From Ginglymostoma cirratum (lineage: Eukaryota): a stretch of 64,000 bases of DNA. The stretch covers positions 27,942,132-28,006,131 of the forward strand of contig JAHRHZ010000069.1 in NCBI GenBank assembly GCA_024137785.1, given 5' to 3'. The translations under genes and the position numbers were made by a program. Below are positions 1 to 60,091 of the stretch, piece after piece (position 1 is the first letter of the stretch; each line of letters opens with the position of its first letter). The notes beneath the pieces are model-generated. The model made no database searches. It saw nothing but the letters and a program-made list of their open reading frames with translations, and had not been told where the DNA came from.

Positions 1-125
1 CTCTCTTCCCCTCCCCCATTTCTGATGAAGGGTCTAGGCCCAAAACATCAAGTTTTCCTGCTCGTATGATGCTGCTTGGCCTGTGTTCATCCAGCCCCAT
101 GCTTGTTATCTCGGATTCTCCAGCA
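1..125 (+). mobile_element. Penelope-like terminal repeat fragment (family A) with decayed hammerhead motif
   Basis: CTGATGA-A-GGGTCTAGGCCC-AAAACATC followed by the family tail GATGCTGCTTGGCCTG..TTCATCCAGC..TTATCTC. Confidence 0.75.
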
Positions 126-333
126 CCTTTTAACCTTTGTAACCACAGGCTGTACCAGAATTGAACTTGTACAAACCAGTCCAGTGAGATAACCAATCCA
201 TTTAATATATAACACTCACTCAGATTGTGAAGTGATTAGCACTGAACCTGCAATGATTAAAACTCTGTAGTAGTGAACAAAGTCAACAAGTGTGAACACA
301 TCCCTTGGAGAACAAAGTAAAGTATGTACATAC

Positions 334-451
334 TGTTTTCAAGACCATTAACTACGACCTTGCTCATGTCTAGTGGATATGCTACATCAATGTTGAAAGG
401 ACTCTTCGGAATTGGGTCACCACCATAAGTTACAACAATTCCCATGTTACC
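334..451 (-). CDS. FLNB: FLNB coding exon 19
   Basis: [39 protein letters not shown]; donor A|GTATGT; 118 nt. Confidence 0.95.
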
Positions 452-3400
452 CTGCAAACACATTAGAATAGCATTTTATTCACTTTACCAAATGAGACAT
501 GGCAGTTGTCTTTGATAAAGCTCTTTTCACGTTAGAAAATGGCAAAGTCCTGCCCAAGTTCAAAGGTAAATAAGCACCCACCTGCTGTATTGGTGTATAC
601 TTCACAGTCTGAGAATAGTCATAATTGTCAATTATTTCAAAGTCACGGACAGCATCTCCTTTTGCAGGCCCACTGAAGCGTACGTTAAGGGGAGCCTTCC
701 CAGCCCCCTTTGTATATACTGTGAAATGTGTGGGTTTCCCAAGTTCCACTCCTGTGGATTGGAAGAACATACTCAGGTATAGAACATTCCAGTATACTGC
801 CCGGGATAGTGAAAAGACACTACAACCAAGGTTGGTCAAGTGTGCTGTAACCATCCCCATCCTCCAGCCAACTACCTCCAATGCAATTGCAAAATACTTT
901 GAAAACAAACTTGTCACTATTGATCTGTTTTTCTCAGTAAGAGACAACTAACGTCTGTGCTCCAGCCTGGACTTTCAATGGCCAGAGACTGCTGGTGAAC
1001 ATGGAAATAAGTGAGCATTAAAACAAAAAATGTTAGCTTAGAAAAATCAGCCCTGTCAGATTGGAAGAGGCCATTTACCCCATGTCTGCACAGGTTCCAG
1101 AGCAGGAGTCTTCAGAATGTCATTTTCCCCACAACTCTGCACATTCCTCCTCCTTACCTTTTTGAAGGCATCATCTCTTTCAGATAGCATATTGCACACC
1201 TTAACCATTCAGCTCTTCATAGAGGAAAAAGCAAACAAGAGTGTCAAATTTTAGTTTGGTGCCCTCATTTCTTGATCAAGTTGGAATGGTTACCCCCACC
1301 CATTTTGTTCTACAGACCCCAAAACATAAATACATGTAAAAATCTCCACTGCATTTTTCTAAAAAGGCAGGCTTCCACTTCTCCAATGGCCTTTAACTCC
1401 ATCACCCTGGAAAATCATGAACCTTCTGTACTAATACCTTCACATTCTTCCTGTTGTGTCTAAACTAGTATTCTAGTAGTTTTATGACCAGCCCAAGAAA
1501 GCCTAGCATACTGTACGTTTCATTAGATGTACTCAGGTCCTCCTATTCTTGCAGTCACTTCAGAACTATACCCAGGTTGTCTTTCCACCCAAGAAGATTT
1601 AACATTTCTCCAGAGTGAGCTTCATTTGCTTCTTGTTCACACTTCTGCCAACTTAACCAAATTCTATTGGAATTCTATGTTTCCTCAGTTCATAAGTGGA
1701 CATTTTAATCATCCATAAAAATTTTATAACTATGACAATTCTGATCTGACCATCGGAGAGTTTTGCAAATCTTACTGAACTAAGGTAACATTATCCTCAA
1801 AACCAACTGATAACAGAACATCCAAAAATCTCACCTATTACACTGAAATACAAAAAGCAGTTTGCCAAAAAAGGTTATTTGTAAAAGGGAGTATTATGTC
1901 CAGTATTGTTAACATTAATGATGCAAATGCATTGGAGGTAAAGGTCTAGGTTTGTATCTGGCATTTGGATTTGGCTTGATTGAAACAAGGCTTACAGGGG
2001 TCACGAGTGTGGAGAGGATATTTCCTTTTGATATGGGAGCATCTGGAACTGGCTGGGAGTCAGGGTGGAAGATGTTCAAAAAAGTGCCTTGTTAAAACTG
2101 ACAAGATTCCTATGTCAGAGGGATGAGATGATGCAACATGCTCAAGGACTGAGGTCTTGGTTAGTGGTTATACTAATAAAAAAGGCAGGCAAAAAAATTC
2201 CCACTGACTGGTATGGACTTTCCTTTGGAGGGACATATTTGGAGTTCACAGCAGTATGCACCACAGCCTGGCAAAAAATACCAACTTATTTTGCTAGAAG
2301 TAGATAGAGCTACAACTGCCTCCCTGCTGGGATCTTAGCATGATTTGAGGCTTAAGTAGTAGGCATTATAAAAGTAATCAGTCCACACAAAAATGCACCA
2401 GGCAAACCAAAAGCAGACAGCCTTTTGGCACAGGCTAGCTTTCTCCCACAAGAACTATACATGAAAAAAGGTTGTCAATAAAAAGGAAGGAGCACCATGG
2501 GTATATACAGGTGGGGGGGGGGGGGGGGGGGGTGTGTATAGAACAGAACACCACTATTGAGACACAAGGGAACCAGATGGTTCCCAGAGTCTTTTGAGAT
2601 TAAAAAGTCGTTACTCAAAAGACAAGACATAGAGCTGTACATTTTGAACAATCAAGTCATACATTTACAAAATAGCCATACCGCATTTCTCTACCAGTCT
2701 TTTCACCACATTACAGAACCACCCTCAGCTCAACAAAACAACTGCCTAATTTTTAAGGCTGCAACTTGTAAGGGGCAAGTTTAATAAATGTTCAAGGAAT
2801 ACACAGTTTTGCTGGAGTTTTGGAGAGACTACTGTGGAACCAAGTGAAGCTTTAGTACTGGACTCTCCTTATCTGTGAAAATACAGGAGACAAAAAAAAA
2901 CACTGGAATCTCATTTGTTCCAGAAATCTCAAGTAGGAGTTTGCAGCTGACAAAAACCACTAGGCTAGAATGCTGGAGCTCAATTCACGGAACGTTCAAT
3001 ATCAAACAAATGGTACTCGGACTTTCTGAAGGAGGGTATAGGCCCAAAACATCAGCTTTCCTGCTGCTCGGCCTGTTGTGTTCATCCAGCTTTACACCTT
3101 GTTATCTCAGATTCACCAGCATCTGCAGTTCCTACTATCTCTGTACTCAGATACAAGTCTTATTTGATCTCAAACATAATGGCTTCATTGGATAAGCTGT
3201 TGTACCATGTTTACTTGACTATTGAGTGCTTGATGGAGCAGTATGTAATACTAGATGAGTGGTATCTAGATCACTGCAGTAGCTGTGAATGGTGGAAAAT
3301 ATTAATCCAAGTTCATCACACCATTTGACCATCTGCAAGTGTCTAGCAGAAAGAAATACCTCAATCTTGTGGCTTTGACTCTTACCAGTTTTGTTTAAGC

Positions 3401-6400: not shown

Positions 6401-9400
6401 TTTAGAAAGGTGGTATCCAAGGATCTTTGGTGAATTTCTGCTGCTACTGTCTAAAAGCTAGAGGCAGCATGTACCAGCTGTTAGTGGTGAAGGACTGAAG
6501 GTGCACAGATGTGGTACCTATCAAGCTGGCTGCTGTGCTTTAAAATTGTCAGGCTTTGAGTGTTGAAGTTCATTCATCCAGACAGGTCAGGGTACCCCAA
6601 ACTGACTTATGCCAGGGACAGACTCAGTCATAACTTGACCGAGTCTGGCTACAAGGCAGGTCAGGAGCAAGAGTATTTTATATGGCTAGCTCAGTTCTGT
6701 TGCAGGTTGTGCTTGTGTAGCATCAAGGAGCTTATGCTTAGATTCTCTTATTTGAGATTGTTATTGCTTGACATTTGAACTGTAGTGTTTTCGTAACCCA
6801 CAAGTCTTATTGTCTAGGTCTTGCTAGACTTAGACACTCACTACTCCTATCAAAGACAAGTCCATAAAGGTAGTCTCCCCTTTGGGGGATTGGTACCACT
6901 ATTTAACTAGACAATAAACTAAGAACATGGGCATCCTCCCTGTCTAAGAGGGATCATGGCACAAATATCGAGCAAAGCAAGGAAGTGACCTAGACTTTAA
7001 GTTGCAACAATTGAACCAAACAGATTTTAACATTAACAAATATCATAGTTGGTAGAACCATGTTAGTGTCTGACATAATTACATTTGCACTAAAAGCAAT
7101 TTTCTAACATCTGAAAATCTCTGCAAACCTGGTGACTTGTAAAATAGCAGTGAAGTACCAATTTCATGCCCTAGGCCACTCAGCAGCATAAGTTCAGTTG
7201 ACTGGAGAAAAAGCAAAAAATTTACCCAAAGTTGCGGAACACCAAAAGCAGGGCTTTAACCTAAAAATAGTTAAGTTTTTTTGAAGGGTCCGACCCAAAA
7301 CATCAACTTTCTTGCTCCTCTGATGCTGCCTGGCCTGTTGTGGTGTTGCTCCAGCTCCCTACTTAGGCTATTAAAAATGGACTTTGACCAGACCAATTAC
7401 AACCAGGATAACAAATATTTGCCTAAGCAGTTGGCTAGGATGGTTAATGAAGTTTTGGGTTTAAAAAGATATCACATGAACGTCCTTAAATATTACAAGC
7501 CATCTCGGATGTGTCAGTGCTCACACAGAAACAAGTTGTAAAATTCATGACAGATGCAGTATTTGTTACCTGCTTTAGGTAAGCAAATCACCAAAGTATT
7601 TTAGGAACACAGGCTGACAGCTGCCCAGTAAACTACAGCCCAATTTCAGGTTGGATTTCAGATGTTTTCAAATATGCCTAACTAAAAAGTCTGATCTGAC
7701 ATTGAGAGAATGGAGAATTATCATTCATGTCTATCTTCCACAATGAGGCATTCAAGAAATGGAAACTAGTCCATAGCTCCAGGATCAAGTGTTTATGTTA
7801 CATTAATGGCATGGACATGGTGTCAGGCTATTGGATGCAGTTGGAAGACTACTGAAGTGTTAAGTGGCAGATTAATTTAATTTTCAGGCTTCAGAGTAGA
7901 CAATAACTTGGAGCGCAGTTCAAGTGAACGTACGTCACCTGCACAGAGTTCAAAATACCTGAAGTTTGATATTTTTCTCCTCTTTTTGAAAGTGGCTTTA
8001 CCACTTTATAGCAGGCACAAAAGCACTGAAATACTAGGGAGTGGTTTTTCCATCCTTGCCCACAAGATTGTTCAGTCCAGTGGCAGACCAACAGCAGTAT
8101 CCTCACTCAAGCCAACACACTGGGCCAGTCTTGTATCCTTTTACCTACAGGTGCCTGACTAAGGCCTTTGCTGTCTTTGTTGTAGTAGGAGAGTCAAGAT
8201 AGTGGAAACACTATAGGGACGTATTCAAAGCACTGGAGGCAAGAAAGCATTCTGGATACAGTCCATGGTTTGGAGAGCAGCCAGAAGTGGCAATGGTTTA
8301 TTCAAAGGCAGCTTTGAACACTGTCAGGATCAGAAGCACATAGTGAAGGGTAGAGATTGCCCAAACTCAACTCATCTACTCAAGATGTCAGCAGCTGGTG
8401 CTGGACAGGAGTTTGCAAAGCACAAACTGGACTTCTGACATTGCAACCCATCAAAAAACTGGAGTTGAAGGCTCAAGCGGCTGCCTTGACTGGCACTTAC
8501 CCGATCAGGATAGAAGGAACTGGATGCAGGTTGAATGGCGGCCATGAAGGGACTATCCACAATGTCCTCATCATCACACAACACATGCACTGCATATTCA
8601 CCAGGCTCAGTTGGCCAATAGCGTACATCACAGGATCCATCACTTTTATCGTCACATTCAATCTTTGCTTGAGAGGGACCCTCTACTGCAAAACCTATGA
8701 AATAACGTTTGCATTAATACCTTCCAACCTTTTCAGGTTTAAAGTTTGATTTCAAAAACTTACTTGTAGTTGAATTCTAAAGCTTTCATGTCAATGAAAA
8801 GTTAAAAATTTGGTTCATCTACAAGTGAGCTATACCTGTTTCAATCAACTTAGGATATTCTGGTTTTAAAAACCAAGTCATTTTTGTCCCACCTCAGCAA
8901 CAACGTCCATGTGCCTTTTAAAAAGGCAAAGTGTATTTGACAAGCATGAAACAGTTAGTAGTTAGCAAGTTAACATGACTTCTGTAAAGTTTCTGAAGCA
9001 AGTTAATCCAGCAACTGGAGGTACTGTCTAATCTATCATTTAAAGTCAAAACCTTTTGCCCAAAGACAAAACCAGACAAACAGAAGCAAGCCTTACCTAA
9101 CACCCCAACGTCTGTTCCAATGGTTTCTACTACAAAGTCTGCTGACTTTCCAACAACTCCTCCATCAAGGCCAGGACCCCAGGCACGTATTTTTTGAGGA
9201 CCTGCTTCAGGTCCAATCTGAATTTCAAAGGGACTAAAAGAGAAAAAAGGAGAAGTTCAGCATATTCAGGCTAAGACATGGATTGCAAAGTTCTAGTCTG
9301 AACTGGCATTGAACAACAAGGAATTTTTTTTAAGTGGCTACCCTGTAACTAGTAGAATGCCACATGGACCAGTGCTGGGGCAGTTTATATTTTAGTGACA

Positions 9401-12400
9401 GGGTGGGGGTGCAAAAAAAGGAAGGCAGCAGTCTGTACAGGGATATGGACAAGTGGGAGAAGACTCAGTAGATGGAATAATGTGGGAAGGTAACAAGTGG
9501 TGTATTTTTGGCAGCAACAGGAAAAAGCTGATTACACAAGTGGAGAAAGATTGCAGAAAGCTATCAGGGGTGGGGGGGAGAAGCGGGCAGGGGAGAGAAG
9601 ATTTGGAAATCCTTATCTAATGAAAGAAGAAGAAGCTAGCAGCCAAGTTCAGCAAGGAGGAAGGCAGACAAGTAGAAAGCTGGCCTTTGTTTCCCAAAAC
9701 AAAAAAAGAAGAAGGAGTATGAAAACAGGAAAGTCTGCTTAAACTATATAACATACAAGCAGAACCACAGCTGGAAAGCTTGAGTGTTTTGGACACCTTA
9801 TTTCCAATAAAAAAGGGTAGCTGTACCAGAATTTGAGGCAGTTCAGAGAAGACTGGTACCAAGCAGAGGGACTGCCTCAAGGTGTAGAAGGTTGGGAACT
9901 ATACTCATTGGAACTTAAGAATACGGTTACCATATTGAAATTAAGGGTAGATGTTGTGAATTCCACCCCCCACCGCCCCAGGGTCTAGGGCCAAAAAAGG
10001 GACAATCTCATGGCCAAACAAAAAGCAGGCAGAATTCCTTTAAGCCAGCCAGTCTGCTGATTTTTTCAGCCACCCAGCCTCAGATACATTCAAGGTCAAG
10101 AGATAGTTAACCCTTTCTTTGCTTATGGGGGAAAGCTAGGAAAGTTGAATAGAGGATTGTCAAATCAGCATAATCCGAGTGGTAGATCAGACCTGATGGC
10201 TAAATAGCTTGCTTCTACTCCATCTTATGGAATTAGGACCAATGGGCTATGAGTGCTTTGTTAAAAAAAGTGCTAAGACTTAGTGCCACTCATGAAAGCA
10301 AAACAGGAAATTGAAAATACAATGTTTTGTATAACATCTTTAGTGCTGTAAAAAGGCTGAAGACTGCAGTTGGTTATACCACCTGAGAACATTGACTTTG
10401 GAGTCATTTTAGGATGAGAAACTTGTTAGTTCTGTTCTTCAAAAAGAGAAATTTGCAACAAAGTTAATTAAAAGGCTGAAATTTTAGCTTCAGTTTGGAG
10501 GGAAGGGAAAGGACACAGGGAATTTGTTAGATGGCATGCACAGAGGTACAAAAAGTTAGTGCATGGATGGACAAGTGGGGCATGAACAGGGGAAAATGTG
10601 CTTTTTGTTTCGGTCCCAAAGTGTTATATGCCAACAGAAATTAGCAGCCACAAAATGGGGTGGAGTGGCATGAAGGCACTGGCATTGTCTTAAAGAGATA
10701 GTTACAGCAGAAGACAACATTTAGAATAAAAAAGCTTGCAGACTCAGTCTTACTAGGTCTGTAGGTCAGACTGAGACATCAAGGTCATGAAAGCAAAAAG
10801 AATTTCTGTACTTACCTCCTTGGGATGTTATGTCCCCCCCACGTGATGGTGACAATGTGTTTCCCAGGTGTAACAGGGTAGTACTCATAAGAGAAGGCAT
10901 CCCCTCCATCCAGAAGGTCTCTCTGCTTCACAGGCTGCTCTAAACCTTCTGTTAATTGGATAGATTAACCACAGTCAGACTATGAAAGCTTAGTATGCAC
11001 TAACCAACATTAAAAATAGTTTCAAGCCCCTCCAACCAGATGTCTGAAAAAGATATGCAGGGAGGTTGTTTATTGCTCAAATTCATTTGAGCATGAAGGG
11101 GACATGAAAGCATTAAAAAAGCCCACCTATTAAGTCACTAAAATGATTAGTAATAGTTGAAGAATGGAAAACCGTGTAGTGTCTAGCAGCACAAGTCAAT
11201 ATCCAACAGGGACTAACTTATTGTTGACTAGTGCATTTCAAAAAAAAACTTAACCAGTTTCCAGAAAGCAAGACCACAACATTTTGGTTCAAATTTGCAA
11301 AAATCTTACTGAATCAAGTACAGACTAACTACACATACCATTAGATGCTGCAATTAAGACTTAATTAGGGCCTATTTCACAGCTAAAAATGTAAAACAGT
11401 GACATGTGGTCATAATCAAGGCCCAACCATTTTTCAAAGCAACATCCAAGTCCAAGAGAGATTTAGTGCCAGTGTTGTTAGTTTAGAGCACCTTGACTAA
11501 CTGGAAAATTTAGACACTAGATTTTGCAGACTTGTGTAGCAAGTCAGAATGTGACAAAACTCAGATTAAACATGGGAATTTTTACTATTTGAAAATTTTA
11601 AAATCAAGACAAGCAGCAAACCTACGATGAAAATCTGTACTGGATTTAGATGATGGCAATGATCGCCTAAGTTTCGAGCTATACAAGTTATTAAATCAGT
11701 CATAAGTCCTTTGGTCAAAAAGCAACTTACTTGGTCCCTTCACTGTCACTTTCAGGTCACCACTTCCAGCCCCTTTGGTATGAACCTTAAAGTCTGCAAC
11801 TTCACGAATTCTCAGTCCTTTAGGTTGTAGGCCTCGCCCAGTTGCACGACAGGCATTGGGGTTACAAGCTGGAATGAAAATTTGTAATTTCTGCCTTGTA
11901 CAGCAATGATAAAGTGAAAAAGGAGAAAGCACAGATTGAACAAAAATCCCATTGAGAAAGTCACAAACTTTGTGCTATTAAAACCACCAGTGCTGTTAAG
12001 AAATCAAAATAAAACCTAAAGACAGCAAGAACTGCAGATGCTGGAGTCAGACTGTGGAGCTGGGAGGAACACTGCAGGCCAGGCAGAGAAGCAGGCAAGT
12101 TGACATTTTGTGTTGGGACCCCTTCAGAAGTGGGGGAGGGGGAAGAGCAAGGAAAGAGAGGAGGGTTGAGTTTGGGGCTGGGGAATGGAATAGGTGAATT
12201 CAGGAAGTGGTGGGGGGCAGCTAAGTGGGAGAGAAGATGGACAGGTTGTATCAGGTCCAGGAGGCAGGGATGAAATGGAGGGTTGACATGGGACGAGGCT
12301 GGGTTTGGGGGAAGTTTTAAAATCTTGTGAATTCTATGTTTAGACCAATCAGGCTGGCAGCTCCTGAGGTGGAATACAAGATGTTTGTCCAGTTTGTGCG

Positions 12401-15400
12401 GCATTGGAGGCGGTCCAGGATAGACATGTCACCCAGGGAGTGGGAAGGGGAGTTAAAATGGTTTGTGACTGGAAGGTTGAGTACATGACAAATGACACTG
12501 AGTGCAGATGCTCTACAAAATAGTCCAAGTCTACACTTGGTCTCGCCAATGTAGAGGCAGCCTTTTGTCTAACAAAAAAGGTTTGCTTTGGACCTTGAAA
12601 CCTGAACAGCCTTGTTCATGCTACTGCATGTACAAAAAAAGTGGCCACTGAGCTCAAAGAGGTCCAGTTAGAAGCTAGCATTACATAGGAAAGACAACAT
12701 TCCATCATTGTTCTAGCCAAATGGTTTTCCCCTAGTTGGAGGGGTGGGGGTGTGGGGAGCAGCAGAAGGAAGAGATGAGATATTTAGGTGCAAAAGTCAA
12801 AAATCAATACCTGGAAGCCAAAAGCATGATTCAATGTCTGAAAGTTTGACCAATGCACCACTAATTAACCACCTCAATTGAATTGTTTAATAGTTATCTA
12901 AATGCATCTCATTCTTCAGATGTGATCCTCCCTTTAAAAAAAAAAAAAACTGTTTCTTACCACCCTCCCAATATTAGTTGAAGGAACTCAGCCCTAAGAT
13001 ATTAGGGCAAAAACAGGGATTATGGAGTAGAGAAGGAGCAGATTAAAAAAGTTTTTGTAGTTGCTCAGTGCATTTTAAGCTTTAGAAACTTGATTTGGAT
13101 AATGATTTGAAAGCAACTTCAGAAGTTTGTGCTACATAAAGATTTAAATCAAAAACTTCAACAGGAGTTACTGTCTACTTATTTGCCTGATGTGGCCATC
13201 ACCAGCCTTTATCCTTAGAGTAACTAGATAGAGGGGACAATTAAAAAGTAGTCATGTTATTAGGTGTGGGATTGTATTAGAACCTTGTACAGTCCAATAG
13301 TCTTAGCCACAATTATTTATATTAGCTTTATAATTCTAATTACAAACAAACAACTTTTTGCCACTGCAACAGTGGTGATTTGAGATAAAAGCCCCATGCT
13401 TGTTATAACAGATGTGATTTGATCTCTTTACTTTTATGATATGACAACATATTGGGAGTAGCACTTCAGATGTTCATGAGCATGAAATATCTCCCTAACC
13501 TACTTTGAAAGTAAGAACCTAAAGCATAGCAACAAGGAGCTGGAGTACCATTTGGCACCTCAAGCCTGCTTCCTCACTCGAGGGCAGCTAGATTGTGGCC
13601 TCAACCACACCATCTTTAAAACCCAAGACTCCCTTCAACTTGGAATTAGACTTGACTGAAGATATTCAGTGACTGACTCAACCTGCCATGTACACATCTA
13701 ACCAAAAAGGGAAGCCTTTTGTAAGAGTGCCTATTAGGTCTTGTTTCTCCCACAGATGTCAGGATGGCTGTTGAATGGACAAAATCCACTGCACCCCCAC
13801 CTCACTGTCTCAAAAAGATCAAGTCTTATTGTTACGATCCACTGGGGACAGGCTCATCCTGACCAACGTTCCCTTGAGATTTTCCCTTCAACCCAGTTAT
13901 CAGCCAAGGTACCTTCTCTGGATTATACATTAAAACCAGTCACCCTGTTCAACTGTAGCAAGCAAAAAACCATATTCCATCTGCCCTTCCAATGAGGGAA
14001 ATCTTTAGCCTTCCTTCGTGAAATTGCTGGCTGGACCTGTATACTACCTGGACGACAAAATTTGCACACTGGTCCACCCAGATTATTCTGCAATTTGAAG
14101 ACCCATACAGTCCCACCATTGACTAATCTCTTCCTCTTGGAGAGGAATGTAAGTAGCATTCATTTGCCAACATGAGATGTTAAAATGCTTTATTACAGCT
14201 AGAGGCTTTAAAACCAGTGTAAAAATCAGCATCCAACTCAGTTTGGCTGATTAAGAGGTACTTGCTGCAAATGTAGTGGCATTTAGCTTAAAAAGCTACT
14301 TACCTTCACCTACAAAGACAGAATACGGGCTCTTGGGTATTGGCGATTCAGCAAATACAATCTGAATAGAGTGTTGCCCTGCTTGCACAGGTTTGTAGCT
14401 GCACCGATAACTGTTGTTTCCCTTGTCTTCAATTATTATGTCAGTGTTGGTACTACCCTGAGGGTCCACGATCACCACTGAAACATTGCCAACTCCAGCA
14501 CCTTTTACAGAAAGGAAAACAGAAGTTCATCTACACAGCAAGTTTTCAATCTTCAAGCACTTAATTCCTTTAGTCGATTTCAAGAGGATCTCCAGACAGG
14601 CACTCAGACCAAGAACTTTGTTCTATAGCTGAACTTAGTTTGAGAGTTCAGTACAAGGGAAGAAGTTACTAGAGACCTGTCAAACTGAGTGAAGAAGTGT
14701 AGTAGTTAGAATATTGCTTTGCCAAAACATGTCCCTAAAATTTATCTGCAAGCTACCTTCTAGGGAATGTGCACCCTGGGAGTTTTGTTAAGTATTAGTT
14801 CAGAGAGCATGCTCCAAGTGACCTTAAGCTCAATTTCAATAAGAGTCAGAATATCCAAAACTTCTGGCAGTGAGCTATATGCCTTCTAGTCTAGCTATAC
14901 TTGCTTGATTACTTTATATATTCTCATGTAAAATTCCCACTTTACAATAAAGCAGCAGTATTTTGAAAATCCATTTGTATCTATGGGCACTTTCCTTCCT
15001 TTCCCAGCCAGATCCCAAAAAGTATACCTGCAGTATAGATATCAAAGTAGGTTGGCTTATTGGCAATGTTTCCTGTAGATTCCAAGCCAGGTCCTCGTGC
15101 AGTCACTTTGCTGGCATCACCTTGGGCCTTGTCAATGTTGACTTCAAAGGGACTCTTTGATATATGTTGTCCAGCAAATAAAACGATAATCTAGGGAGGA
15201 TAGAGAGACACCATTTCAGATGATTATCCATGTACTATCAGCCATTATAACATTACAGGCCCCAAACTAGTAAGGTATGGACTTATTTGCTAGGATTTTA
15301 AATTTCTTGAAGCACAGGTTCAGCTCCCCTCCAAATTACAAGCTACCACCACTCATTTGGACAAAGCTTCATTTTCTAGTCTTTACGTTTGAGGATTAAA

Positions 15401-18400
15401 AATATTTGGAGTTGTACAAGATGGACCTGAGACTTCCGAGCTATTTGCCACTAACACTAGCTACAAATTTCAGTTCTTCAGGGAAGTATCAAAGTAAGTG
15501 TCCCAACTTTAGAGATGGTAGAATGGGTTATGTAGGTGATGGCACCCTGGTTATTTCACAGAATGTGTAGAGTGCAAACAGAATGGCCTAACACCATTGA
15601 ATTAGATTTGCTGTTTTTTAATGTTTGCTCAAGAGCATAATTAGACTGCAGTAACAATAACCAGGCTTATGCACTTACCTTATGACGTCCTGCAACTTTT
15701 GGTACATAAACCACAGTGTAAGTCTTGTTCTTGTCATTATTATTGGTCACCTTTGCCTGGCAGAAAACAAAGGCAACATTAGAACCTTTGTTCTAACATC
15801 CCTGTTGAATAAAAAAGTCTGTTTATATCCACAAGTGAATTAAGGGAGATAGGAAGAAACTTGCAGATATTTTAAAAGTTGGTTAACTAAACATTTTGAA
15901 GAAAGTGATTCTTTAAGGACCAATAATTCCCTTGCTGCTTATTAATGCAAGGTCTTACAGACAGGTTGGCCACTTAGTTTTGGGCACAATATCTTGTCTA
16001 GTTTGGATGGGTGTAATGACACATTTTGCCTCCACTGGGAGGCATGAAACTAGACTTGAAGCATCTTTAAGAAGGCAACTCAAGTGCAGCACCCGATCCT
16101 TAGTGCTGAGACCTGCCACTCAACTCAGTCCACACTAACCTTCTGAAGTGCTATCCCACTCTCCTCAGAACCTCATTTCCCCATGGAAAGTCTACCTGGC
16201 CTGCATATCTATAGACATAAGACAATTTATCATGATCAACCCAACTAACCTGCACATCTTTGGACTGTGGGAGAAAACTGGAGCATACGAAACCTATGCA
16301 GGCATATAGAACAAACTATTGACCCAAGGGAGGAATCAAGCCTGGTTCCCTACCACTGAGGGACAGCAGGTGCTAACCACTCATTCAACTAAGGCCTGGA
16401 CAAAAAAAAGTTTTTGCAACAGCCATATGCTTGCATATAAATCAAATGGTTACAAAGAGTGTCCTTACAATCTGCAGTGACTGAAAGGCCATATTGCTGT
16501 AAACTGCAAGCACCAGTACACTTAAACCACAGGAGTGCCAATTTAGTACAGTGGTCAAGAGATATATACACACACAGGAGTTTTTTGGAAACTTAATGGA
16601 AAGCCTCTAAGGTTTCAGATGGTGCAACAGCTTCTTGAAGTTAATTCCAAACCACCTAAAATTGGATAAGTTCATGGTTAAACCTAAGTCTGAACCAAAA
16701 AAAAATTAAGGTTTTACTTAAGAACAAACTTTATATCTACATTCATATTTGAGACTGCTACAAGATCTGAGTCACTATTAAAACCATTTAGACCTAAGAG
16801 CCTATCAATAAACATCAGATCATTCAGAAGCCTGATGCTGAGGTTCTAAATTCCACTTTCACCAATAAATCTCATTTGGTACAGGGGAAAATGGTCAACA
16901 CTTAGAACCTAAAGCAATTTTAAAGCTATTACCTCCTCACGCTGATTTTCAGGATCCTCCACAAAGACCATCACCTCACCTTGCCCAGCACTGATTGTTT
17001 CAACAGTGAATGTAGCAGGGCGCATCACAACATTACCCACAGGCTCAATGCCTAGGAAAGAAAAAAAAAAAAAACATGCTTAAATGAAAATTAAAAAAGT
17101 TAGAACTTAAAATGTTGCAGTAGGCAAGTTCCTCACTTACACACTGCAACATTACAAATTGCTTTAAGAGCTCAGCAGGTCTGTCAGCATCTGATGAAAA
17201 AGTCAGTTAACATTTTGGGTTGACAGACTTCCTTCAGAAGTGTGGTTGAGGAGAGTCACTGGGCCCAAAACACTAACAGACTTTTCCAGCAATGTGTTTT
17301 TGTTCTCAAATTACAGCATCCGCAGCTTTCAGTTTTTAAAACTTATTTAGGCAATCTAAGCATGAGTTGGGGAGGGATTGCACTTGGATACATGGTTGGT
17401 CTAAAAAGATCAAATATAAACATGCACACCTACCTGGACCATAAGCCCTTGCTTTCTTGGGATTCAGCTTGGGCTTTAACGGAGCTCCAGGTTTAAGTTT
17501 GGCTTTAGGAAACTGGGACAAATATGTCATTACTGACCGTTCATCAACATTCTGATCTATGATTTCCTCTGGGGCAATCACCTGGATGACAGATGCTCAA
17601 AGTGAATAAAGTTAAAGCCAGCTCACTCCAGGGGAAGAAAGTGAATTGAATTTGTAGTAAAACCAACCTCATTAGCTCTTAATACATCTGATAAGTTACA
17701 ATGCAAAATTTGAGTATTGCAATTTATTCTTGAGAATGTATAACAAGACGTGAAATTGAGAAAAAAAAAAACTTTGCAAATTTAAACATTGGAGCCAAAA
17801 TACCACATCTTTGCCTCATGTTACAAAAGTTGGCTAGAGTAATTGTGAAATGGAAGACAAAGCTAAAGTGTGGTCTTTAAGAAATTTGTGCTTTGTCTGT
17901 ACTTGGCTTTTTTTCCTTTAAAATGCTGAGAGCAGCAGCTGAAGTTGCCAGTACCAAGCCTCAAAGTGAAACTGGTACATCAAAAACCTTACAGGTGACA
18001 GGCCAAAAAAAAAAGCAGTCTTGTTCTGATCTTTTGACCAGTTTTATTTTGGCCAATTAGAGTGAAATGGATTCAAGGCCAATTGAATTTAAGAACTGAT
18101 GGTGCTGACAACCTGAAACCAAAAGTCATGATTTGATTATGCCAAAAGGCATTTGGAAAAAACCAAGAGCTAACTGCCATCCAAAAGAGCCAATTGGCCA
18201 TGAGCATCATTCAGCACTGAGAGCTGATCTAAGGTACCATGGTATTTTAGCTCAAAGCCCTCAAAAGAAATTAGGAGATAATTCCACAGTCAGGGATGTC
18301 TTAACAGAAAAGGTGTTTGTGAAGAGACTGGAGATGACAATATTCCAGGAGACAGTGTGGGAATTTGCAGAGATTAAGTTATCAGTTATTGCTTATTAAA

Positions 18401-21400
18401 TGGGTTGATGAGAGCAGGACTTTTATTTAGAGTATTCCAGTAGAATTTAGACTAGTTAAGTAGCTAGTCCAAAGGGGTGTTTCAGTAATTTGGTACTTTG
18501 TTCATTGTTGGGTCAAATAAGTTGCTTTGTTACTTGTAACATGGAGATTTTTCTTTGAACCACTCAAATTAGAAGGGGGGGTGGGGAAGGGAGGACATGC
18601 TTGTGGGTCGTTTCAGTCGGGGGAGGGGGGGTGTCGTCATTAGAGGGGACCCTCTACTCTGGTCATAAAAAAAAGGAGAGATTGGGGCTCGTGTTTAAGT
18701 TCAGTTAGAGGGGTTTTCCCCATTCCCCCTCCATAAAAACACAAACTGAGGTGATACAACAGCCTAAATAGCTAGCTGCACATGCCCAAGGTAGAAATAT
18801 AGTCTTCACTTCAGCCTTCCAAAAAAGTAGACCTTAAAAAATTAACCTTAACTTCACATAGGAAGTTCTCAAGGCATACCAAAATAGGACATTACATTGT
18901 AGAGCATAGCTTTTCATATTTACCCAGGTTACAAGTTTTTTACCTGTGGAACTCCAAGCCAGTCATCTGCTTGTTGCATAGCTTCACGTGCATTATCCAC
19001 TGGTTTGGCTGCATCCCAGATCTCCCAGTCAGGGCACAAACCTGAGTCACATTAAAAGGCAGTGATATACTCCAATGTATGGTACAAATGCACTTTGGTA
19101 ATTATCAAAACATTTGATAAAAAGGGACCGAGATGAAGTGTTCCAAAAAGATAGCAAGCCCAGGATCTTGATAACACAGCCCAGAAGGTTCTTGAAGAGA
19201 TCTGTAGCTCAGATGTGAATGCTGTGGTTGGTTCATTAGCGCAGACTTTTCATTACGCTGCTGGGTAACATCGCTGCAAACTCTGATGAAGCACTGTTGT
19301 TTTCCTGCCTGGTATCTTTTGCACTTGGCTACCTCACTTTTCTTCAGAGTGCTATGTATAGGGTCTAATTCTGTGTTGATGGATGGTCTCCTTAGTGGTG
19401 AACCAGGCCTCTACAAGTTCCCATGGATGTCTGTTTGGCCTGTCCTAGGATCGGGATGTTGTCCCAATTGATCAGATAAAGGGAGAACCACCTGTTCAAT
19501 CGGAACCTCTGGCCTGTCCTAACGGACAAGCATGGGACTATGTACAGGCTTGGATTGCCACGAAGGCAGCCATCCATCACCACAGCTGTAGACTGACCCC
19601 ACACACCACTGCGAAGAACACAAGTGAGGTAACAAAGTCCAACAGAGACCAGGAGTTTAAATACCAGGCACAAAAACAGCACATCTGGAGGCTGCAGTGA
19701 TGTTGCCCAGCAGAGAAGTGAAACACCTGTAAACTAACAAACCAGCTTGGTGAGTGAACCAATCACATCCCTTAGACTAGGAGGAAACCCGAATGGCCCT
19801 CCCCATCCTCAGATCTTGGGAAATGATTTTAGAGTGGAAAAGTGTGCCAAAATTAGAACAGGGACACAATCCAAGAACAGCCCTTACCATGGGGTGAGGT
19901 AATACACAGAATCCGTATTGTTTAGGAAGAGGCCATTTGACCTAGTGAATCCACATTAACCCTTTAAAGAGCACCCCACCCTGAATTACCCTCTCTAGTT
20001 TTGCATTTACCCAGGCTCATCCTAAATTGGATTAGTTAATCTTAGCCTACACACCTGATTACAAGCAATTTAGCATGACCAAGCCAAACTTTTGTCTTGT
20101 GTACTATGGGAGGAAACTGGAGCACCTGGTGGAAACCCATGCAAACAGCAAAAACCATGCACACTCCACATACAGTTGCCCAGGGCTAGAACTGGACAGT
20201 ACTTGGCAGAGTTAGTGCTACTAACCACTGAGTCACTGTGCGAAATATCCATCTGAAAATAGGTTGATTAGTCCTAGCTTCAAAGCTGACACTGACATGC
20301 TCTTGACATTTACACTGGTTTGATTTTACATTAGGTGAAGGTGCCAGTCAACCTAAGTCCAGAGACTTTCCACTTTAGGGGGAAGGATGGGAAGTCAAGT
20401 TGCTATGCAGCTTTTCAGGATCACAAGAGTTGAGGCTCCAAACTAGTCGGAGGCCATCTGTTCCAGATTTCCAATGTGCACTTTAGTTGATGCCCAATGA
20501 TACTCACCTGGAGCACAGCTGTCAACCAGAGCACCCAAGGCTCTTCCATCTTTCCAGTCATTGCTGAAGTTGGTGATTGGCAAATCAGGCAGTTTATTCT
20601 GAATCCATCCCAATAGCCGCTGTTTGGGTGTCTGATTCTTGGCATCATCAGCTCCTTCATCATCCCAAACTGGCATGGAAATAGAGTAGTGAAGAATCAA
20701 AGTCCATATGAGCCCTAGAATGAGCTTCAGATTCCCATCTAAAATGGCTTTGCTGTCTGAAAAGCAAACAAAGTTAAAATTAAAGTCAAATAAAAAGATA
20801 ACAACTTGGGTCAACTTCATGAAGTTTTGTCAGAATATAAAAAGGTGCTTCTCCCACCCATTGGGTTTAAACTCATTCACATTCAAGTGGTGTGGAAGTA
20901 ACAGAAAATTGAAGTTAAGATAGACAGATAAATGCCATAGTAAAAAAGGGTGGCTTGACAGGGCATTATGTGCCAGCCATGTTGGAGTGGGGTTAATCAG
21001 TTCATTCGAGACATAGGCTTTAAAAACACTTCTCAATTTAAATTTTAGCAGTTAAAAATAGAATGCAGTGTTTAAAAAGTATGGTGAAATGTGAACTGAA
21101 ATCAGAATTAGTTACCAGTCTAGTAACAATCACAAAAATGTTAGACTTGTTCGACCTCTTCCATGAAATGATTTGGTATCATCCTCAATGCTGAACTATT
21201 TCCTCCATGGCACTCACCATAAACAGGTGGCCTAAGCTGCCTTTGACATTGCACATGCTAATGATGGAGTACAGTACATTTGTTAGAGAAACATTTCAAT
21301 GCACAAACACCATGCAGTTACAGCAGTTGACCCTGTTAATCTAATCATTTCCACACAAGTTCCTTCCTCAAATGAAGGATGACCAATCGTGCTCAATTAG

Positions 21401-24400
21401 GAAAAAAAAGTTTGTCACCTGGAGGCAAAAGCACAATTGCCAAATAACTCAATTGGAACATAACTTAACAGTACAGAATATTTGTCTGAAACTACTTTAT
21501 ACAGAAATTAGTAATCACTCAATTGTCACAAAATCTCTTTAAAATCCCATATCTTGTACAACCAATTGTAAGAAGTTCTTGGGGGATCAGCACAGGTTAA
21601 CAATGCTTTACAGAAAACTGCAAAGTGCCAGGCCAATTTAGACCATCAAAACAATGCAAGTTTTGAATAGTACTCATGCCAAGTTTGGAATGTGGCAATA
21701 GTTGTATCCAAAACCAACAGGTCTTCAGAACTGAGAGTGTAATAAGGTGTGGCTTTTATAGAGGTGTATATTTTAGCCTTGAGCAGAAAAAAGGTCCATC
21801 TGAGGCGACCTTTGAATTTAAGTTTCTGCATGCCTTGGTAATATTACTGAGATTCTCAAAAAAGAATCATGCCATCTTAAGGCCACTAAAGTTTGACAGC
21901 TGGAAACTTGGTCCTACTAATCCAAAAAAGGTTTAGTTCAAGGAATGCAGTATTTGCACACACTTGTAAACAATGTTCAATTCCTTAATATCATGTTATC
22001 TACTCCCAGTTGGTGTTTTATGGGGAGAACAGTATTGCCACATTAGGACAAAAATACTCAGTTGGGAGGCACACTAGTGGTCACAGTCAAATTCCGAAAT
22101 TTAGGAAACTGGAGTAAAGACCAAGAAGGTAGTGTTATACCTCAACCTGTGCTTAAGAAACCAAGCCCCACAATTCCCAAAGTCAAGTGTTAATTCTTTT
22201 TTAAAGAGGGACATGCAAAATTCCCCACTTTGACTTTTAAACCCAGGTGACAAACCAGAACATTTTGGGTAAAGGGCAAAAGATTAAGACAACTGTTCAG
22301 TGGTCCTTGGCTGTATGGTTAAACAGGTTTAGTGATGAGAAAAGACCAATGGTGTTCTACAGATACTCGTTTGGTTTGCTGAACAAACCAGGAAGTGAGC
22401 TGGATGGAGATGCTTAACCAGGTAAGCAAAAGCAAGGGAAACCACTTACCTTCGAGGGGTTTGTCAAAGTCACTCAATTGTTTAGTTACTGGGAGTCAGT
22501 TGACAGGAGGCCTTAGTCATCAGTAACTGACTGTTTGCAGACTAGTGACAAGAGCAGTTTGTAAACACCATGGGATTCCAGCTTGCCTACAAAACTAAGA
22601 TTCACTGCTGCTTGTTCAAGCAGCAATACAGATTACACTTAAATGGCTGTTAAGCCAGTAACCTAAACAAGTGTGACAATCACTTAGTGAGAATAAAAAA
22701 GGTACTGCAGATGCTGGAGGATCAGAGATAACAAGCATGGTGCTGGGTGAACACAGGCCAAGCAGCATCATAGGAGCAGGAAAACTTGATGTTTCAGGCC
22801 TAAACCGAAGGGTCTAGGCCCGAAACGTCAAGTTTTCCTGCTCCTATGATGCTGCTTGGCCTGCTGTGTTCATCCAGCCCCATGCTTGTTATCTCTTGAC
22901 AATCACTTCAGTTTTCATTTCAACCCACAAGTCAAAAGCTTACGGTCTACAGCTTTTAGACTGAATTCTGATAAAGGGAATGAGCTCCTCAAGGCAGTCA
23001 GTTTGCCAATTGTAGAGATCAGAGAGGGCATTAAGTCAGCAAACCAAAATTTGATTAGAATGCAAGTCTGCTTACAAAGAGACTGCCCTTCCTTTAAAAT
23101 GAAAGAAGTGTGCTACTGATCAGTGCCAGCACAGCAAATTGTTTCAGCATTAATGCATAGTAGCAGTTTCTCAAAGCATGTGCTGTGAAGTGGTTGAGGA
23201 AGGAGTTTCAGGTTACTGAAAAATCTGGTGCAAAGTGACATTTCAGAACCATGGATAGAAAGCTTATGGACTGGACAGCCAGTGGTACTTTTACAGAATC
23301 ATTTAAACCTACGCAAGTTTTAAATAAAATGGTGGAATCTCTCATCAAGAGGAAGGAGGCTTATGTAAAGATGAGATGTGAAGGCTCAGTTAGGGCACTT
23401 AATAGTTACAAGTTAGCTCTCTTTAGGTCCTTCCTGGCTAAGAAGAGCCAGGAGGGGACATGATCCTACCTGCCAAAGACCAAGGAAAACCCTAAAGCTT
23501 TCTATAGGTATGTTAGGAATAAAAGAAAGAATGACTAAAGATAGATAAGGGCCAGTCAAGGACAGTAGTGGGAAGTTGTGCGTGGAGTCCGAAGAGATAG
23601 GCGAGGCGCTAAATGAATATTTTTCGTCAGTATTCACACAGGAAAAAGACATTGCTGTCGAGGAGAATACTGAGATACAGGCTATTAGACTAGACGGGAT
23701 TGAGGTTCATAAGGAGGTGGTGTTAGCAATCCTGGAAAGTGTGAAAATAGATAAATCCCCTGGGTCGGATGAGATTTATCCTTGGATTCTCGGGAAAGCC
23801 AGGGAGGAGATTGCAGAGCCTTTGGCTTTGATCTTTGTGTCGTCATTGTCTACAGGAATAGTGCCAGAAGACTGGAGGATAGCAAATGTCCCCTTGTTCA
23901 AGAAGGGGAGTACAGACAACCCTGGTAATTATAGACCAGTGAGCCTTACTTCGGTTGTGGGTAAAGTGTTGGAAAGGATTATAAGAGAGAGGATTTATCA
24001 TCTAGAAAGGAATAATTTGATTAGGGATAGTCAACACTAATGGTTTTGTAAAGGGTAGGTCGTGCCTCACACACCTTATTGCGTTCTTTGAGAAGGTGAC
24101 CAAACAGGTGGGTGATGGTAAAGCAGTTGATGTGGTGCATATGGATTTCAGTAAAGCATTTGATAAGGTTCCCCACGGTAGGCTATTGCAGAAAATACAG
24201 AGGCATGGGATTGAGGGTGATTTAGTGGTTTGGATCAGAAATTGGCTAGCTGTAAGAAGACAGAGGGTGGTGGTTGATGGGAAATGTTCATCCTGGAGTT
24301 CAGTTACTGGTGGTGTACCGCAAGGATCTGTTTTGGGGCCACTGCTGTTTGTCATTTTTATAAGTGACCTGGATGAGGGCGTAGAAGGATGGGTTAGTAA

Positions 24401-45400: not shown

Positions 45401-48400
45401 TTGAGATAGCTCAACTGGACAGTCTTGGATGCTGCAATTTGCTCTTTAAGAAAGAGCAGGGTTACTGGGAAGACAGTCTGTTTAGACTGCAGGCTTTAGA
45501 ACAATTATCACAAATACAATGATAGACCTAGCACTGCAACATGGGATTTTAAACCAGAAAAAAAAAAATTGAATTGACCCTGGTTAGAGGTCAGGTTGCC
45601 CTAAGGGTGGTGAGATAGACTCAAGACATGGTTGGACTAAACCAGAAAAAACCAACCTAGCTGTCAACTTCAATTGACAAGTATTTTTCAAGTTCTGGTT
45701 TAAATTTTGAGTTGCACCCACTGAGCTAGCATATGGAAAGTCTTCAAAAACGTTGTTATCTTCTGGTGAAAAGGCATGCAAGTGGCCTAAAGCAGTTAGC
45801 CATCAGCCAAAACTGCAAATTTCTTATCAAAAACCCAACATGAAGCAAACTGAAGGCATTGAACAAAATCTTGTAAAGTTTACTGTAACACTAAACAGGA
45901 TGAATAGATAAATGCATCATACTGCACAACTGACATACAGCTGCTGTGGCTGGTCATTTCAGTACAAGAATGACTGGTGTGGTAAAGATTCACCAACTAG
46001 TTGAAACTATTCTACTACATCATACACACCATGTTTAGGTTAGGATGCAAACCCTCCTGCTTTCAGATGAAAACAGACAGGCAAACATGGTACCATATGT
46101 TGCCAACATTAAGCACCCATAACTGATAAAGTTAATGGTCAATATTGGAATCTGCAAGGATTCAAACACCTGAAACAATCACAGGGATCAAGTGAGCAGT
46201 ACAATCTTACATGTGAAGATTTCTCTACCCCTTAGATCTTTAGTGGTTGTACAAATGGCTACTCTGTACAATCAAAAGCCAATTAGTGTACACTGAGGAG
46301 AAAGTAGGCTTGTTTTTAGTCACTTGCTTATTGGTCAGTCTGAAGTCAACTTCAGACAGGAGGGTGGAGAACATGCCCCCACTTACATAAACAGATGAGG
46401 TGGGAGGTGAAGAACAAAGTTCCTCAGGAGTGATGATAACATGATCTGTCCTGGACTTCCCACATAAGTGGACAGTCAGGACAGCACAGCAATTCATCTT
46501 AGTCTTCAGGCAGCTCAGGAAATTTGGTACGGCCATAAAGGTCCCTTCAACTTTTCCAGATGCACCATGGAAAGTGTACTGTCCAGGTGCATAACAGCCT
46601 GGTACAGCAACTGCTCTGCCCAGGACTGCAAGAAACTATAGGAGGTGGTGTGCACAGCCCAGACCACAGAAGCCAACCTTCCATCCATGGACTACTTACA
46701 TGGCCCACTGCTGCAGAAAGGTGGCAAAAGACCAAACACCTTGGTAATTACCTCCTACAACTTCTATCAGGGGGGATACAGAAGCCTGAATACATGCACA
46801 AACAGGTTCAGCAACAGCTTCTTTCTGGTTGTTAGACTGTTGAATGGACTCTAGCCTCAAATATAATGTAATCTGTATGCCCCCAAGTTTTTTTGATCTT
46901 TACATCTTTTGCTTACTGTGTTCTGCCTGTATTGCTTTTAATAAAAGCTTGTCAATGTACAAACAGTGACAAATCAATTGGTTACCATAACTACCAGCAG
47001 CCAATGAATTTAGTAAATACTTCCTTGCCTATTCAGGTAATGCTCAAGTTGGAGGGTCAACATATTTTAACCTGTTGAAGAGTCAAGAAGCTTCACGAGT
47101 CTGTATGGAAATTACTGTGGGTACAACAATCCAAAAACCATTGGCCTGTAACAGCCTAACTTCTAAGCACGTTATCTCTAAAAAAGGGCAGAAGGATTTT
47201 GCTCTAAGGTGAGTATCTTAAGGTAGGGAAGCAAAAGACATTTCAGTATGTGACAAACACCACTAATACAATGCAAACGGAAATATGATTGTGGGGAAGG
47301 AGTAGCACTTAATAGCTTAATCTTTACTGAGTGAAGCTGTTCTATCTGTAATGACAAACTAAAAAGTTCATGTTTCATCTCATATGTGGTGTGATGGAGT
47401 CAAATCCAATGAGTACCTGTTACACTTATATAGAATAAACTGTTGAAACTCTACAGTTTAGGCATTAACACCACACTGTTTTCAATCCTCAAGGACAGAC
47501 TGTGATCCACATTAAACAGAAAAAAAACAAGTTATAACTTCAAAAGGTAGAAGAGAGTTAAATCAGCTTGTTCAGACAAGTGACACCTTCAGGGCAGGTG
47601 GGATTTGAACAGGCATTCTAGCCCATAGGCAAGGACATTATTAGTGCACAGATAACCCAATCTAGAATGGATGCACTGGCTGCAAATTCATGTGCAACAG
47701 CATCAAATGTTACTCTGGAAAGTTCCCCTTGCCTCTAAGTGCAGTCAGCTCAATACTTGGACCATCTAAATTAAAAAGATTACTGCATTAGTTTGCAGCA
47801 GTACTCTAGCAGATTCAAGTGCATCCTTGAATGTTGGTATGCTCTTCCCAAGATGATTCAAGTTCTACAGCTCAAGATATATTGGATGATAACACTGCTA
47901 TCTGCAGTTCACATGCAGGATTTACCAAGGACTAGTTCTATTATAATTTCTGAAGTGATAAGCCAGAAATCCTGTGCTTTTAAAAATTAGAAGATTAGGC
48001 ACCCATAAGGTCACTCATGGAAGATTGCAGTTCTTGGTACAGTGGAGGAGTGAAGGGGTCACTGGACCTAAAGAGTTGACTGCTTTCTCTCCACTGATGC
48101 TGGCACCCCTGCTGAGTTTTTCCCCCCAGTAACTTGTGCATTTCTATATAAATTAGAAACAGACAAGTTGCTACCTGGGGAGGCCAATATGAAAACATTG
48201 ATAGTTACAAGTCTCTTGAGGACTAAAAATGAAGTCCCATCTGGTCAAAGTGTCACAATGCACTGGAGGATGACAATGTCACATTAGAGTAAGTTACTCA
48301 TGACAATGTAGAATAACTCAGCACCACATGTATAAGCTAAAAACAAACAAATGCACATGAAATCTGTAGATTTCTAGAACTAGCAAACCATTCAAGTGAA

Positions 48401-53849: not shown

Positions 53850-54845
53850 AAATGCCTTTGTTGCAGGCAGACCTCCACCCACACAGCATGGTGAGGATGG
53901 CACTACAAGTGGCTGAAAATCTCTTTGCAGTGTGCTCCAATCAGACTGGAGCAGGAGACCTTTTCAACATCTTAAAAATTTGCCATCTACTGTTGTATAA
54001 AGGGACACCATTGAATTCTGCCTACAAGGTGAGTGGCACGGTGGCTCAGTGGTTAGCACTGCAGCCTCACAGTACCAAGGACCTGTGTTCGATTCCAGCC
54101 TCGGGCGACCCTCTGTATGGAGTTTGCACATTCTCCCTGTGTCTGTGTGGGTTTCCTCTGGGTGCTCCGGTTTCCTCCCACAGTCCAAAGATGTGCGAGC
54201 TGGGTGGATTGGCCATGCTAAATTGCCCGTAGTGTTCCAGGGTGTGTGGGTTTTAGGGGGATGGGTCTGGGTGGGATGCTGCAAGGGTTGTTGGGCGGAA
54301 GGGCTTGATTCCACACTGTAGGGATTCTATCTATCTAAAATACATTGTATTCTCTCTTTCCAGAGAGAAACAAGTAGAGTGGGCATGCGACTTGACCAGA
54401 ACTGTAGCCTTCGCCACAGTGCAGGGTGCAATTGATTGCACGCAAGTTGCTATAACTGGTGTCACAGGTGAATTGCAGTGTACAGCTATATCAGTATTCA
54501 TGCAGGTCAATGCTTGGTATCCTGGCAGGAGTCATGATACCTGTATTCTCTGCCAGTCAACTGTTCCATGGGCTTTCGAGGAAACCAGAGGGGTTTATAT
54601 CTGCTGACCACCTGGCTCAGGACTCTGTTGCACAAAACATGTACACCTGGACAGCATGCAGATAAGAAATGCAACACTGTCATATGAAACTTCATCATCA
54701 AGTGAATCATTAGTTGCTTAGCAATGTCTCCATTACATCTTCTGCTCTGAGTCACGCCTGCTGTCCTCTCCAAAACCATATGTCATGGTTAGTCATTGTC
54801 TGCTGCATCATGCAGAACCTCAGCATTACAATAGCATAGCCTGTG
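53850..54845 (+). pseudogene. PIF/Harbinger DDE transposase (HARBI1-like) remnant, split by a SINE
   Basis: LLQADLHPHS..AL.VA..FA..S.QTGAGDL before the SINE; YIVFSLSREKQ..FATVQGAIDCTQVAI..VNAWYPGRSHDTCILCQS and VIVCCIMQNL after it. GAIDCT and PGxxHD are DDE_Tnp_4 motifs. Confidence 0.8.
54031..54336 (+). mobile_element. tRNA-derived V-SINE (HE1-like)
   Basis: A box TGGCTCAGTGG (54042-54052), B box GTTCGATTCC (54087-54096), core GGGTGCTCCGGTTTCCTCCCACAGTCCAAAGATGTG, CR1-type tail GATTCTAT. Confidence 0.88.
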
Positions 54846-57140: not shown

Positions 57141-57585
57141 AGGTAAGGACTGACAGTGATTAGCACTGCTGCCTCACAGCCAAGGACCAGGGTTGGATTC
57201 CAGCCTCGGGTGATTCTGTGGAGTTTGCACATTCTCCCTGTGTCTGCATGGATTTCCACCGACTGCTCCAGTTTCCTCCCACAGTCCAAAGATTTGCAGG
57301 TTAGGTAGATTGGCCATGCTAAATTGCCCATCGTGTCCAGGGAAAAGCAAGCTAGGTGGATTGACCACGATAAATGCAGGGTTACAGAGATAGGGTGGGA
57401 GGCTGGGTTTGCGGCAGGGGGATACTCTTCGGAGGGTCAGTGCAGACTCTATGGGCCCATTTTCTCTCCTCTTGTTCATCTTCTGCACCAGGGCCCCTGG
57501 GAAGAATTACAGGTAACTTTGCAGCACATTCTCTTCCCTCTTCCCGCTCTTCTATCTGCACTGTAGGGATTCTATGATTCTATGA
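57141..57585 (+). mobile_element. HE1-like V-SINE with a foreign insert in its tail
   Basis: Same core as 54031-54336; tail GATTCTATGATTCTATGA; ~90-nt insert at ~57458-57550. Confidence 0.85.
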
Positions 57586-59625: not shown

Positions 59626-59981
59626 TCATAGAATCCCAACAGTGTGGAAACAGGCCATTTGGCCAACAAGTCCCAACCAACCTTCGAAGAGCATTCCAAA
59701 CCAGTCCCATCTCCATACTCTTTCCCCGTAACCCTGCATTTCTCATGACTAACACACCTAACCTATACATCCCTGAATACTATGGGCCAATTTAGCATGA
59801 CCAATCCACCTGACCACACATCTCTGCACTGTGGGAGGAAACCAGAGCACATGAAGGAAACCCACATGGACACGGGGAACACATGCAGACTCCACACAGA
59901 CAGTCACCCGAGGGTGGAATCGAACCTGAGTTTCTGGCGCTGTGAGGCACCAGTGCTGACCACTGAGCCACCATGCTGCCC
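59626..59981 (-). mobile_element. HE1-like V-SINE
   Basis: Reverse complement of A box, B box and core; tail TCATAGAATCCC on plus. Confidence 0.88.
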
Positions 59982-60091
59982 TCAAGTGCAACGACTTTGG
60001 ATGTTTTCCTGTATTGAAGGTGCTATAAATACACATGTTTTTATAGGAAGATTGCTTCAAGTTTCACATGAACCAAAATTAAATGTCCAAT

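Follow-up and report, generated by a model that had tools for sequence, protein, structure and literature searches.

The window analyzed here, a 64,000-nt stretch of Ginglymostoma cirratum DNA, carries a filamin gene on its minus strand, recognized by Pfam CH and Filamin matches. Filamin exons span 334–50167 (−), running from CH domains to filamin repeats, and the gene continues past the window start. The exon at 334–451 (−) is followed by a GT donor at 333; a short motif at 18–53 (+) is therefore intronic and antisense to filamin, in keeping with the intronic location given in a preliminary description of this DNA. One partly spliced contig skips 451–580. Elsewhere in the window, LINE reverse transcriptase remnants (RVT_1) that we take to be CR1-like lie at 23549–24820 and 63045–63228, and a tRNA-like SINE family, presumably of the shark HE1 type, occurs at 54036–54235, 57150–57375, 59817–59976, 20100–20147 and 16223–16300. 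Homologues of another window repeat were named from Chiloscyllium, Hemiscyllium and Stegostoma, in keeping with a genome that is likely of carpet-shark type.

A hammerhead-like motif at the front of an abundant repeat

Direct reading of 18–53 (+) gave ATTT CTGATGA A GGGTCTAGGCCC AAAA CA TC AAGT, while the copy at 22807–22833 retains GAAGGGTCTAGGCCC GAAA CG TC AAGT. Relative to that copy, 18–53 carries two G>A changes, one at 42 (core G12) and one at 47 (16.2), each within a CpG. Hammerhead positions are assigned by the usual convention, with C3–A9 at 22–28, helix II at 30–41, G12 at 42, 16.2 at 47 and C17 at 49. Re-reading of the window thus bore out the letters and the two CpG-deamination-type substitutions proposed in the preliminary description, and its minimal type I hammerhead layout was supported (Table 1). 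The motif is not a 36-nt repeat unit, as had been suggested, but only the front of a repeat of ~130 nt (family A). Helix II is present, although it is predicted to form 4 bp with a CUAG loop instead of GGG(TCTAGG)CCC. The first 21 nt of the window resemble the pyrimidine tract of the copy at 12020–12316.

Table 1. Position, strand and basis of features belonging to the motif, to family A and to the neighboring genes.
Feature	Positions	Strand	Basis or remark
Pyrimidine-rich 3' UTR end of the element	1..17	+	Runs off window start; resembles tract before motif in endonuclease-linked copy
Helix I 5' strand, AUUU	18..21	+	Sequence; predicted pairing probability ≤0.02 in monomer
Core C3–A9, CUGAUGA, intact	22..28	+	Sequence
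Extra A between A9 and G10.1	29..29	+	Sequence; A also in 22/23 motifs of relatives
Helix II, 4 bp with CUAG loop, near-palindromic, G10.1-C11.1 closing pair	30..41	+	Predicted pair probabilities 0.9–1.0
Core 3' half: G12 to A (42), A13–A15.1, helix III palindrome with 16.2 to A (47), U16.1, C17	42..49	+	Sequence; predicted cut 49^50
Helix I 3' strand, AAGU, subfamily-specific	50..53	+	Comparison of window copies
Remainder of pLTR repeat; final ~20 nt of element absent here	54..128	+	Repeat profile
Filamin exon	334..451	−	GT donor at 333; motif in following intron, antisense
Family A copy, begins just before core	3020..3143	+	nhmmer
Family A copy	7283..7363	+	nhmmer
Family A copy with ~190-nt pyrimidine-rich 3' UTR, C3 at 12127	12020..12316	−	nhmmer
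Decayed, frameshifted C-terminal GIY-YIG endonuclease of PLE, stop 12317–12319	12290..12658	−	tblastn E 4e-14 to P0007
Distant subfamily, U at position 17	17170..17254	−	nhmmer E 1e-5
Fold-back insertion, two head-to-head arms	22694..22896	.	Repeat comparison, folding
Family A copy; helix II U-A where 18–53 copy has U-G	29708..29797	−	nhmmer
Family A copy, begins just before core	33014..33131	+	nhmmer
Second fold-back insertion, long − arm, short + arm	35190..35331	.	nhmmer
Family A copy, truncated near helix II	35441..35532	−	nhmmer
Probable distant family A-like copy, U not C at position 17	48030–48123 (nhmmer 48062..48123)	+	nhmmer E 0.076, weak

A profile of family A was made from 10 of the window copies and run on the same window by nhmmer, which placed 12 copies at E ≤ 1e-5 in filamin introns, six sense and six antisense to filamin. 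The copies are dispersed or form fold-backs, and head-to-tail units were not found in the window. Family A keeps the extra base between 9 and 10.1 (A29) and the G10.1-C11.1 pair (G30–C41); its 4-bp helix II (pairing probability 0.9–1.0) occupies 12 nt, the same size as in the relative L001, and 15.2–16.2 is a CG palindrome as judged from copy 22807 and the read consensus described below. The copy highlighted earlier as starting at 22810 does retain GAAA-CG-UC, but it is one arm of the fold-back at 22694–22896: among nine anchored copies, this + arm (22807–22896) alone keeps both CpGs, yet it lacks CUGAU. Helix I, described as AUUU:AAGU, was seen with its 4 bp in the subfamily of the 18–53 copy, whereas four other window copies have 0–2 pairs adjoining the core. 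Copies 1–128 and 22694–22806 are 91% alike over 98 nt with a common 3-nt deletion, and represent either one subfamily or a local duplication; the deletion is rare in reads, CTG being present in 16,431 of 22,636 reads of RNA run X22.

The window was searched on both strands with a descriptor allowing up to two core mismatches and requiring at least 4 bp in helix II and at least 3 bp in helix I, cut-offs that were chosen after the motif was known. Two places matched (22 and 60421), compared to an average of 0.04 over 25 shuffles. With zero or one core mismatch allowed, the window gave no match, and an intact core is missing from every window copy. Measured against the CUGANGA...GAAA...UH core of the minimal hammerheads (min-HHRs) of Penelope-like elements (PLEs), the 18–53 copy has A at 42 in place of G12, and CA at 46–47 in place of the 15.2–16.2 palindrome. 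With G12 replaced by A, this copy is therefore classed as a relic and not as an active ribozyme. The exact 23-nt pattern had no match in metagenome contigs, nor did a degenerate version of the motif in viral contigs.

CpG decay and the state of the family in RNA reads

The CpG-type decay proposed in the preliminary description was clearly visible among the window copies. Nine of 11 alignment rows were tallied, two mis-anchored rows being dropped. The C11.1-G12 CpG reads CA in five copies, TG in three and CG in one, and the helix III CpG reads CA in six, TG in two and CG in one. Thus, 16 of 18 CpG sites have changed, all to TG or CA, compared to none of 45 cells at five non-CpG core positions (Fisher p 4e-13, from an anchoring that used the tested positions and from copies some of which share an insertion). 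The CpG observed/expected ratio of the window is 0.17. On the plain reading of these letters, methyl-CpG deamination would explain the changed sites, and G12 and the helix III palindrome would be lost early because both sit in a CpG.

Decay had been thought to have inactivated the family as a whole, which the RNA reads do not support. Four runs were aligned to window positions 1–900 at 80% likeness, X22 and X23 being raw RNA runs labeled with the same species. In the poly(A) run X22, 31,145 of 12.9 million records (0.24%) were placed on 1–900, evenly on both strands. Position 42 is G in 12,336 of 13,979 X22 reads (88%), in 17/17 X23 reads and in 94% (X5) and 73% (X18) of contig depth, where reads do not equal copies, mates are counted twice and a likeness of at least 80% favors young copies. 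The 2270 reads with a loose end ahead of position 54 give a consensus (agreement 0.59) that spells the core between U4 and C17, GAAA-CG-UC included; the 30 letters considered do not reach C3. The intact core is thus represented in family A, and since most reads carry G12, the family is not uniformly dead.

Upstream of position 3, 2141 X22 reads extend into pyrimidine-rich sequence. All 15 listed joints of 76 are opposite-strand (1,285 reads), and 14 of these 15 have one side at 15–23. Fold-backs are therefore common, and such copies are typical of PLEs (PMC8557442). Read starts and ends formed no pile-up on 1–900, although fragmented libraries may not show one. A clustering of short fold-back arms at 52–55, just past the predicted cut, was considered as a cleavage footprint and rejected, since reads from other subfamilies show clipping at 54.

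A Penelope-like endonuclease, a second family and relatives

The repeat at 12020–12316 is directly preceded by a PLE endonuclease remnant, which identifies family A as the pLTR, or 3' end, of a PLE. In the 12020–12658 copy, C3 lies 190 nt past the endonuclease stop with a pyrimidine tract in between, which upholds the Penelope link made in the preliminary description. The endonuclease piece at 12290–12658 matched no Pfam family itself. Searches with its frame recovered 10 homologues out of 53 candidates, and 40 from the profile library; against Pfam GIY-YIG, seven of the 10 matched at E ≤ 0.1 and one above the cut-off, and the homologues carry GIY-YIG and RT-like stretches. A PLE RT was not found in the window. 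Five of the 10 homologues contain a CX4CxxC linker, observed in these proteins and not in the window copy. A CX2-5CxxC linker before GIY-YIG marks Neptune and Nematis (PMC8557442). From these sequences the family A element is likely of Neptune type, by a mark common to Neptune and Nematis. It resembles the Neptune PLEs described by Craig et al. 2021 (PMC8557442) in the C-terminal GIY-YIG, the linker of the homologues, 5' truncation and inverted truncated copies, and differs in that the window holds an endonuclease remnant only.

As an alternative to truncation of full elements, most family A copies could stem from a non-autonomous element of ~130 nt, a solo retrozyme or mini-PLE with the hammerhead at its start. 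Six of the 12 nhmmer matches begin between −7 and +9 nt of C3, none of them at the cut site, 14 of the 15 listed fold-back joints have one side at 15–23, and PLE-derived retrozyme monomers have been described (preprint bioRxiv 10.64898/2026.07.22.740005). However, three of the six starts near C3 are fold-back junctions, four of the 12 matches, the 18–53 copy included, extend further upstream, and head-to-tail units are absent from the window. The start positions come from a profile made from 10 of the same copies, and clipping can create joint positions. We regard this origin as unlikely and retain truncation of a PLE as the source of the copies.

The window holds a second Penelope-like family (B) at 60091–60497, where an endonuclease tail (60159–60401) is flanked by inverted pLTRs. 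Its + motif (60417–60459) carries C3U plus one CpG change, while its − motif has CUGAGGA, helix II and GAAA intact and lacks the cut site. An older insertion of family B at 19215–19770 has inverted ends and decayed hammerheads. The CX2-5CxxC linker was not seen in the family B homologues P0052, P0053 and P0055, so family B is likely of Poseidon type. Its hammerhead core is the same as that of family A with different stems, and stem covariation is seen between the two families and among distant relatives, not within family A itself.

Relatives were retrieved by alignment to the endonuclease homologues, giving 87 loci: seven genome contigs and, out of 187 metagenome matches, the 80 best. Downstream sequence of at least 300 nt was available for 59 loci. 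A minimal hammerhead with zero mismatches lies within 700 nt on the sense strand in 29 of them, mostly 90–210 nt after the ORF, and on the antisense strand in none. Helix I, which this descriptor did not demand, forms 3.26 of 4 pairs compared to 2.21 in shuffled sequence (23 distinct motifs). In an alignment of 17 of the 23 motifs, 90% of cells pair and two-sided changes number 43 against 14 shuffled, counts inflated by relatedness and by selection on helix II: the relatives are only ~29–56% identical in protein and are related to each other, and helix II was obligatory in the descriptor that chose them. A model built from them (R1) recovered 11 motifs, spread over 10 of the 27 loci that had escaped the strict descriptor. 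Loci L081–L087 are contigs labeled as bacterial MAGs with eukaryote-type PLE endonucleases, several with hammerheads, and are likely host DNA in bins. In L028, L029, L030, L081 and L085 the ORF is flanked by inverted pLTR hammerheads, as in family B.

These data also weigh on a chance resemblance within an ordinary SINE-like repeat. The motif is short, and descriptor matches at looser cut-offs are not enriched (three in the window compared to 1.36 shuffled). Rfam covariance models gave no hammerhead match in the window at E ≤ 5, and the relatives' model ranked the 18–53 copy fourth at E 0.3, which is not significant and not set off from noise. Against coincidence, the motif lies behind a PLE endonuclease in the same position as in 29/59 relatives, the core is present in family A reads and family B in the same window shows the same core with other stems. 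A chance origin is largely refuted by the reads, the relatives and the endonuclease link, and we hold it to be highly improbable.

Predicted fold, proposed mechanism and known hammerheads

Folding of the monomer predicted helix II with a probability of 0.9–1.0 and helix I with at most 0.02, also with both CpGs present. The core is predicted to be masked, UGAUG being paired to the cut-site strand. For a pair of copies, the predicted contact runs through helix II (−22.6 kcal/mol) in preference to helix III (−3.1 kcal/mol); an active helix II-swapped dimer was rejected on geometry.

We propose that the element would copy itself through RNA, and that 5' truncation and fold-back would leave mostly the last ~130 nt. 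In intact elements, cleavage after GUC would require the pairing of two motifs through their ACGU palindromes; it would likely be aided by the element's own protein and would trim a tandem precursor RNA. Once a copy has inserted, methyl-CpG deamination would strip it of G12 and of the palindrome. Ancestral family A would thus have been self-cleaving, and intact copies are predicted to cut their own RNA; the G12A change suggests that the 18–53 copy is without activity. Taken together with this mechanism, we consider it very probable that 18–53 is a CpG-mutated, likely inactive minimal hammerhead at the pLTR start of an abundant, likely Neptune-type PLE, lying antisense in a filamin intron.

The motif could also be a hammerhead by descent that no longer cleaved in the active element, its structure being kept for protein binding, reverse transcription or a promoter. 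This would agree with the weakness of helix I outside one subfamily, with the predicted masking of the core, with Anolis catalytic mutants that had no effect on in vitro insertion (PMC11167929) and with very abundant Naiad elements without canonical hammerheads (PMC8557442). On the other hand, the Anolis motif cleaves with protein (PMC11167929), and the core letters are kept across distant families while the stems vary, a pattern that fits selection on catalysis. Loss of cleavage in the active element appears rather improbable to us, and a cleaving ancestor is preferred. More speculative, and in our view quite doubtful, is that family A is largely a self-spreading ~130-nt mini-retroelement, in which case shark transcripts would carry a huge latent ribozyme load. 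Pairing that masks the core would hold this load off, and activation would come from the Penelope protein or from a helix I made longer by fold-back arms.

Min-HHR motifs were described in the pLTRs of metazoan PLEs as inactive in monomers and weak in dimers, with an extra base after A9 as a trait (Cervera and de la Pena 2014, PMC4209133). Family A shares with them the type I layout, this extra base, the G10.1-C11.1 pair, the palindromic 15.2–16.2, the pLTR location and the prevalence of solo truncated copies, and is likewise abundant, min-HHRs reaching thousands per genome in coelacanth and Xenopus. In contrast, its helix II has 4 bp compared to 7–8 bp in Schistosoma, its helix I is weak outside one subfamily, unlike the 4–5 bp of min-HHRs, and the 18–53 copy is mutated at G12, unlike the min-HHR core; sharks are not known to be among the hosts named in that paper (PMC4209133). 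In the Anolis Poseidon element PAc, hammerhead cleavage is protein-assisted and unnecessary for in vitro insertion (Frangieh et al. 2024, PMC11167929). Both PAc and family A have pLTR hammerheads, but PAc belongs to a different clade and its cleavage was measured, whereas that of family A is predicted. Non-LTR retrozymes (bioRxiv 10.64898/2026.07.22.740005) resemble family A in PLE pLTR origin, type I hammerhead and dispersed monomers; they are defined by at least two head-to-tail hammerhead units, which family A lacks in the window. The same preprint reports PLE-derived retrozymes in its single sampled chondrichthyan and, for Xenopus retrozyme dimers in vitro, cleavage of one in nine and none in the other eight. 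The hammerhead class has been reviewed (PMC6765202, PMC6155905). The literature search listed no publication describing hammerheads of a shark family; family A may already be recorded in Repbase, in Dfam, or in the figures and supplements of PMC4209133 and of the preprint.

A host role for the 18–53 copy was considered and rejected. As it is antisense to filamin and has lost G12, it is likely inert toward filamin RNA, and this single mutated copy is likely functionless. The significance is modest: the hammerhead class has been known since 2014, and family A extends it with a shark-type member that has a very short helix II. The CpG changes point to a route of silencing in which methylation decay would first take two essential hammerhead positions, G12 and the dimer palindrome. 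The abundant family A, with both young and old copies, may provide useful material on why Penelope elements retain hammerheads.
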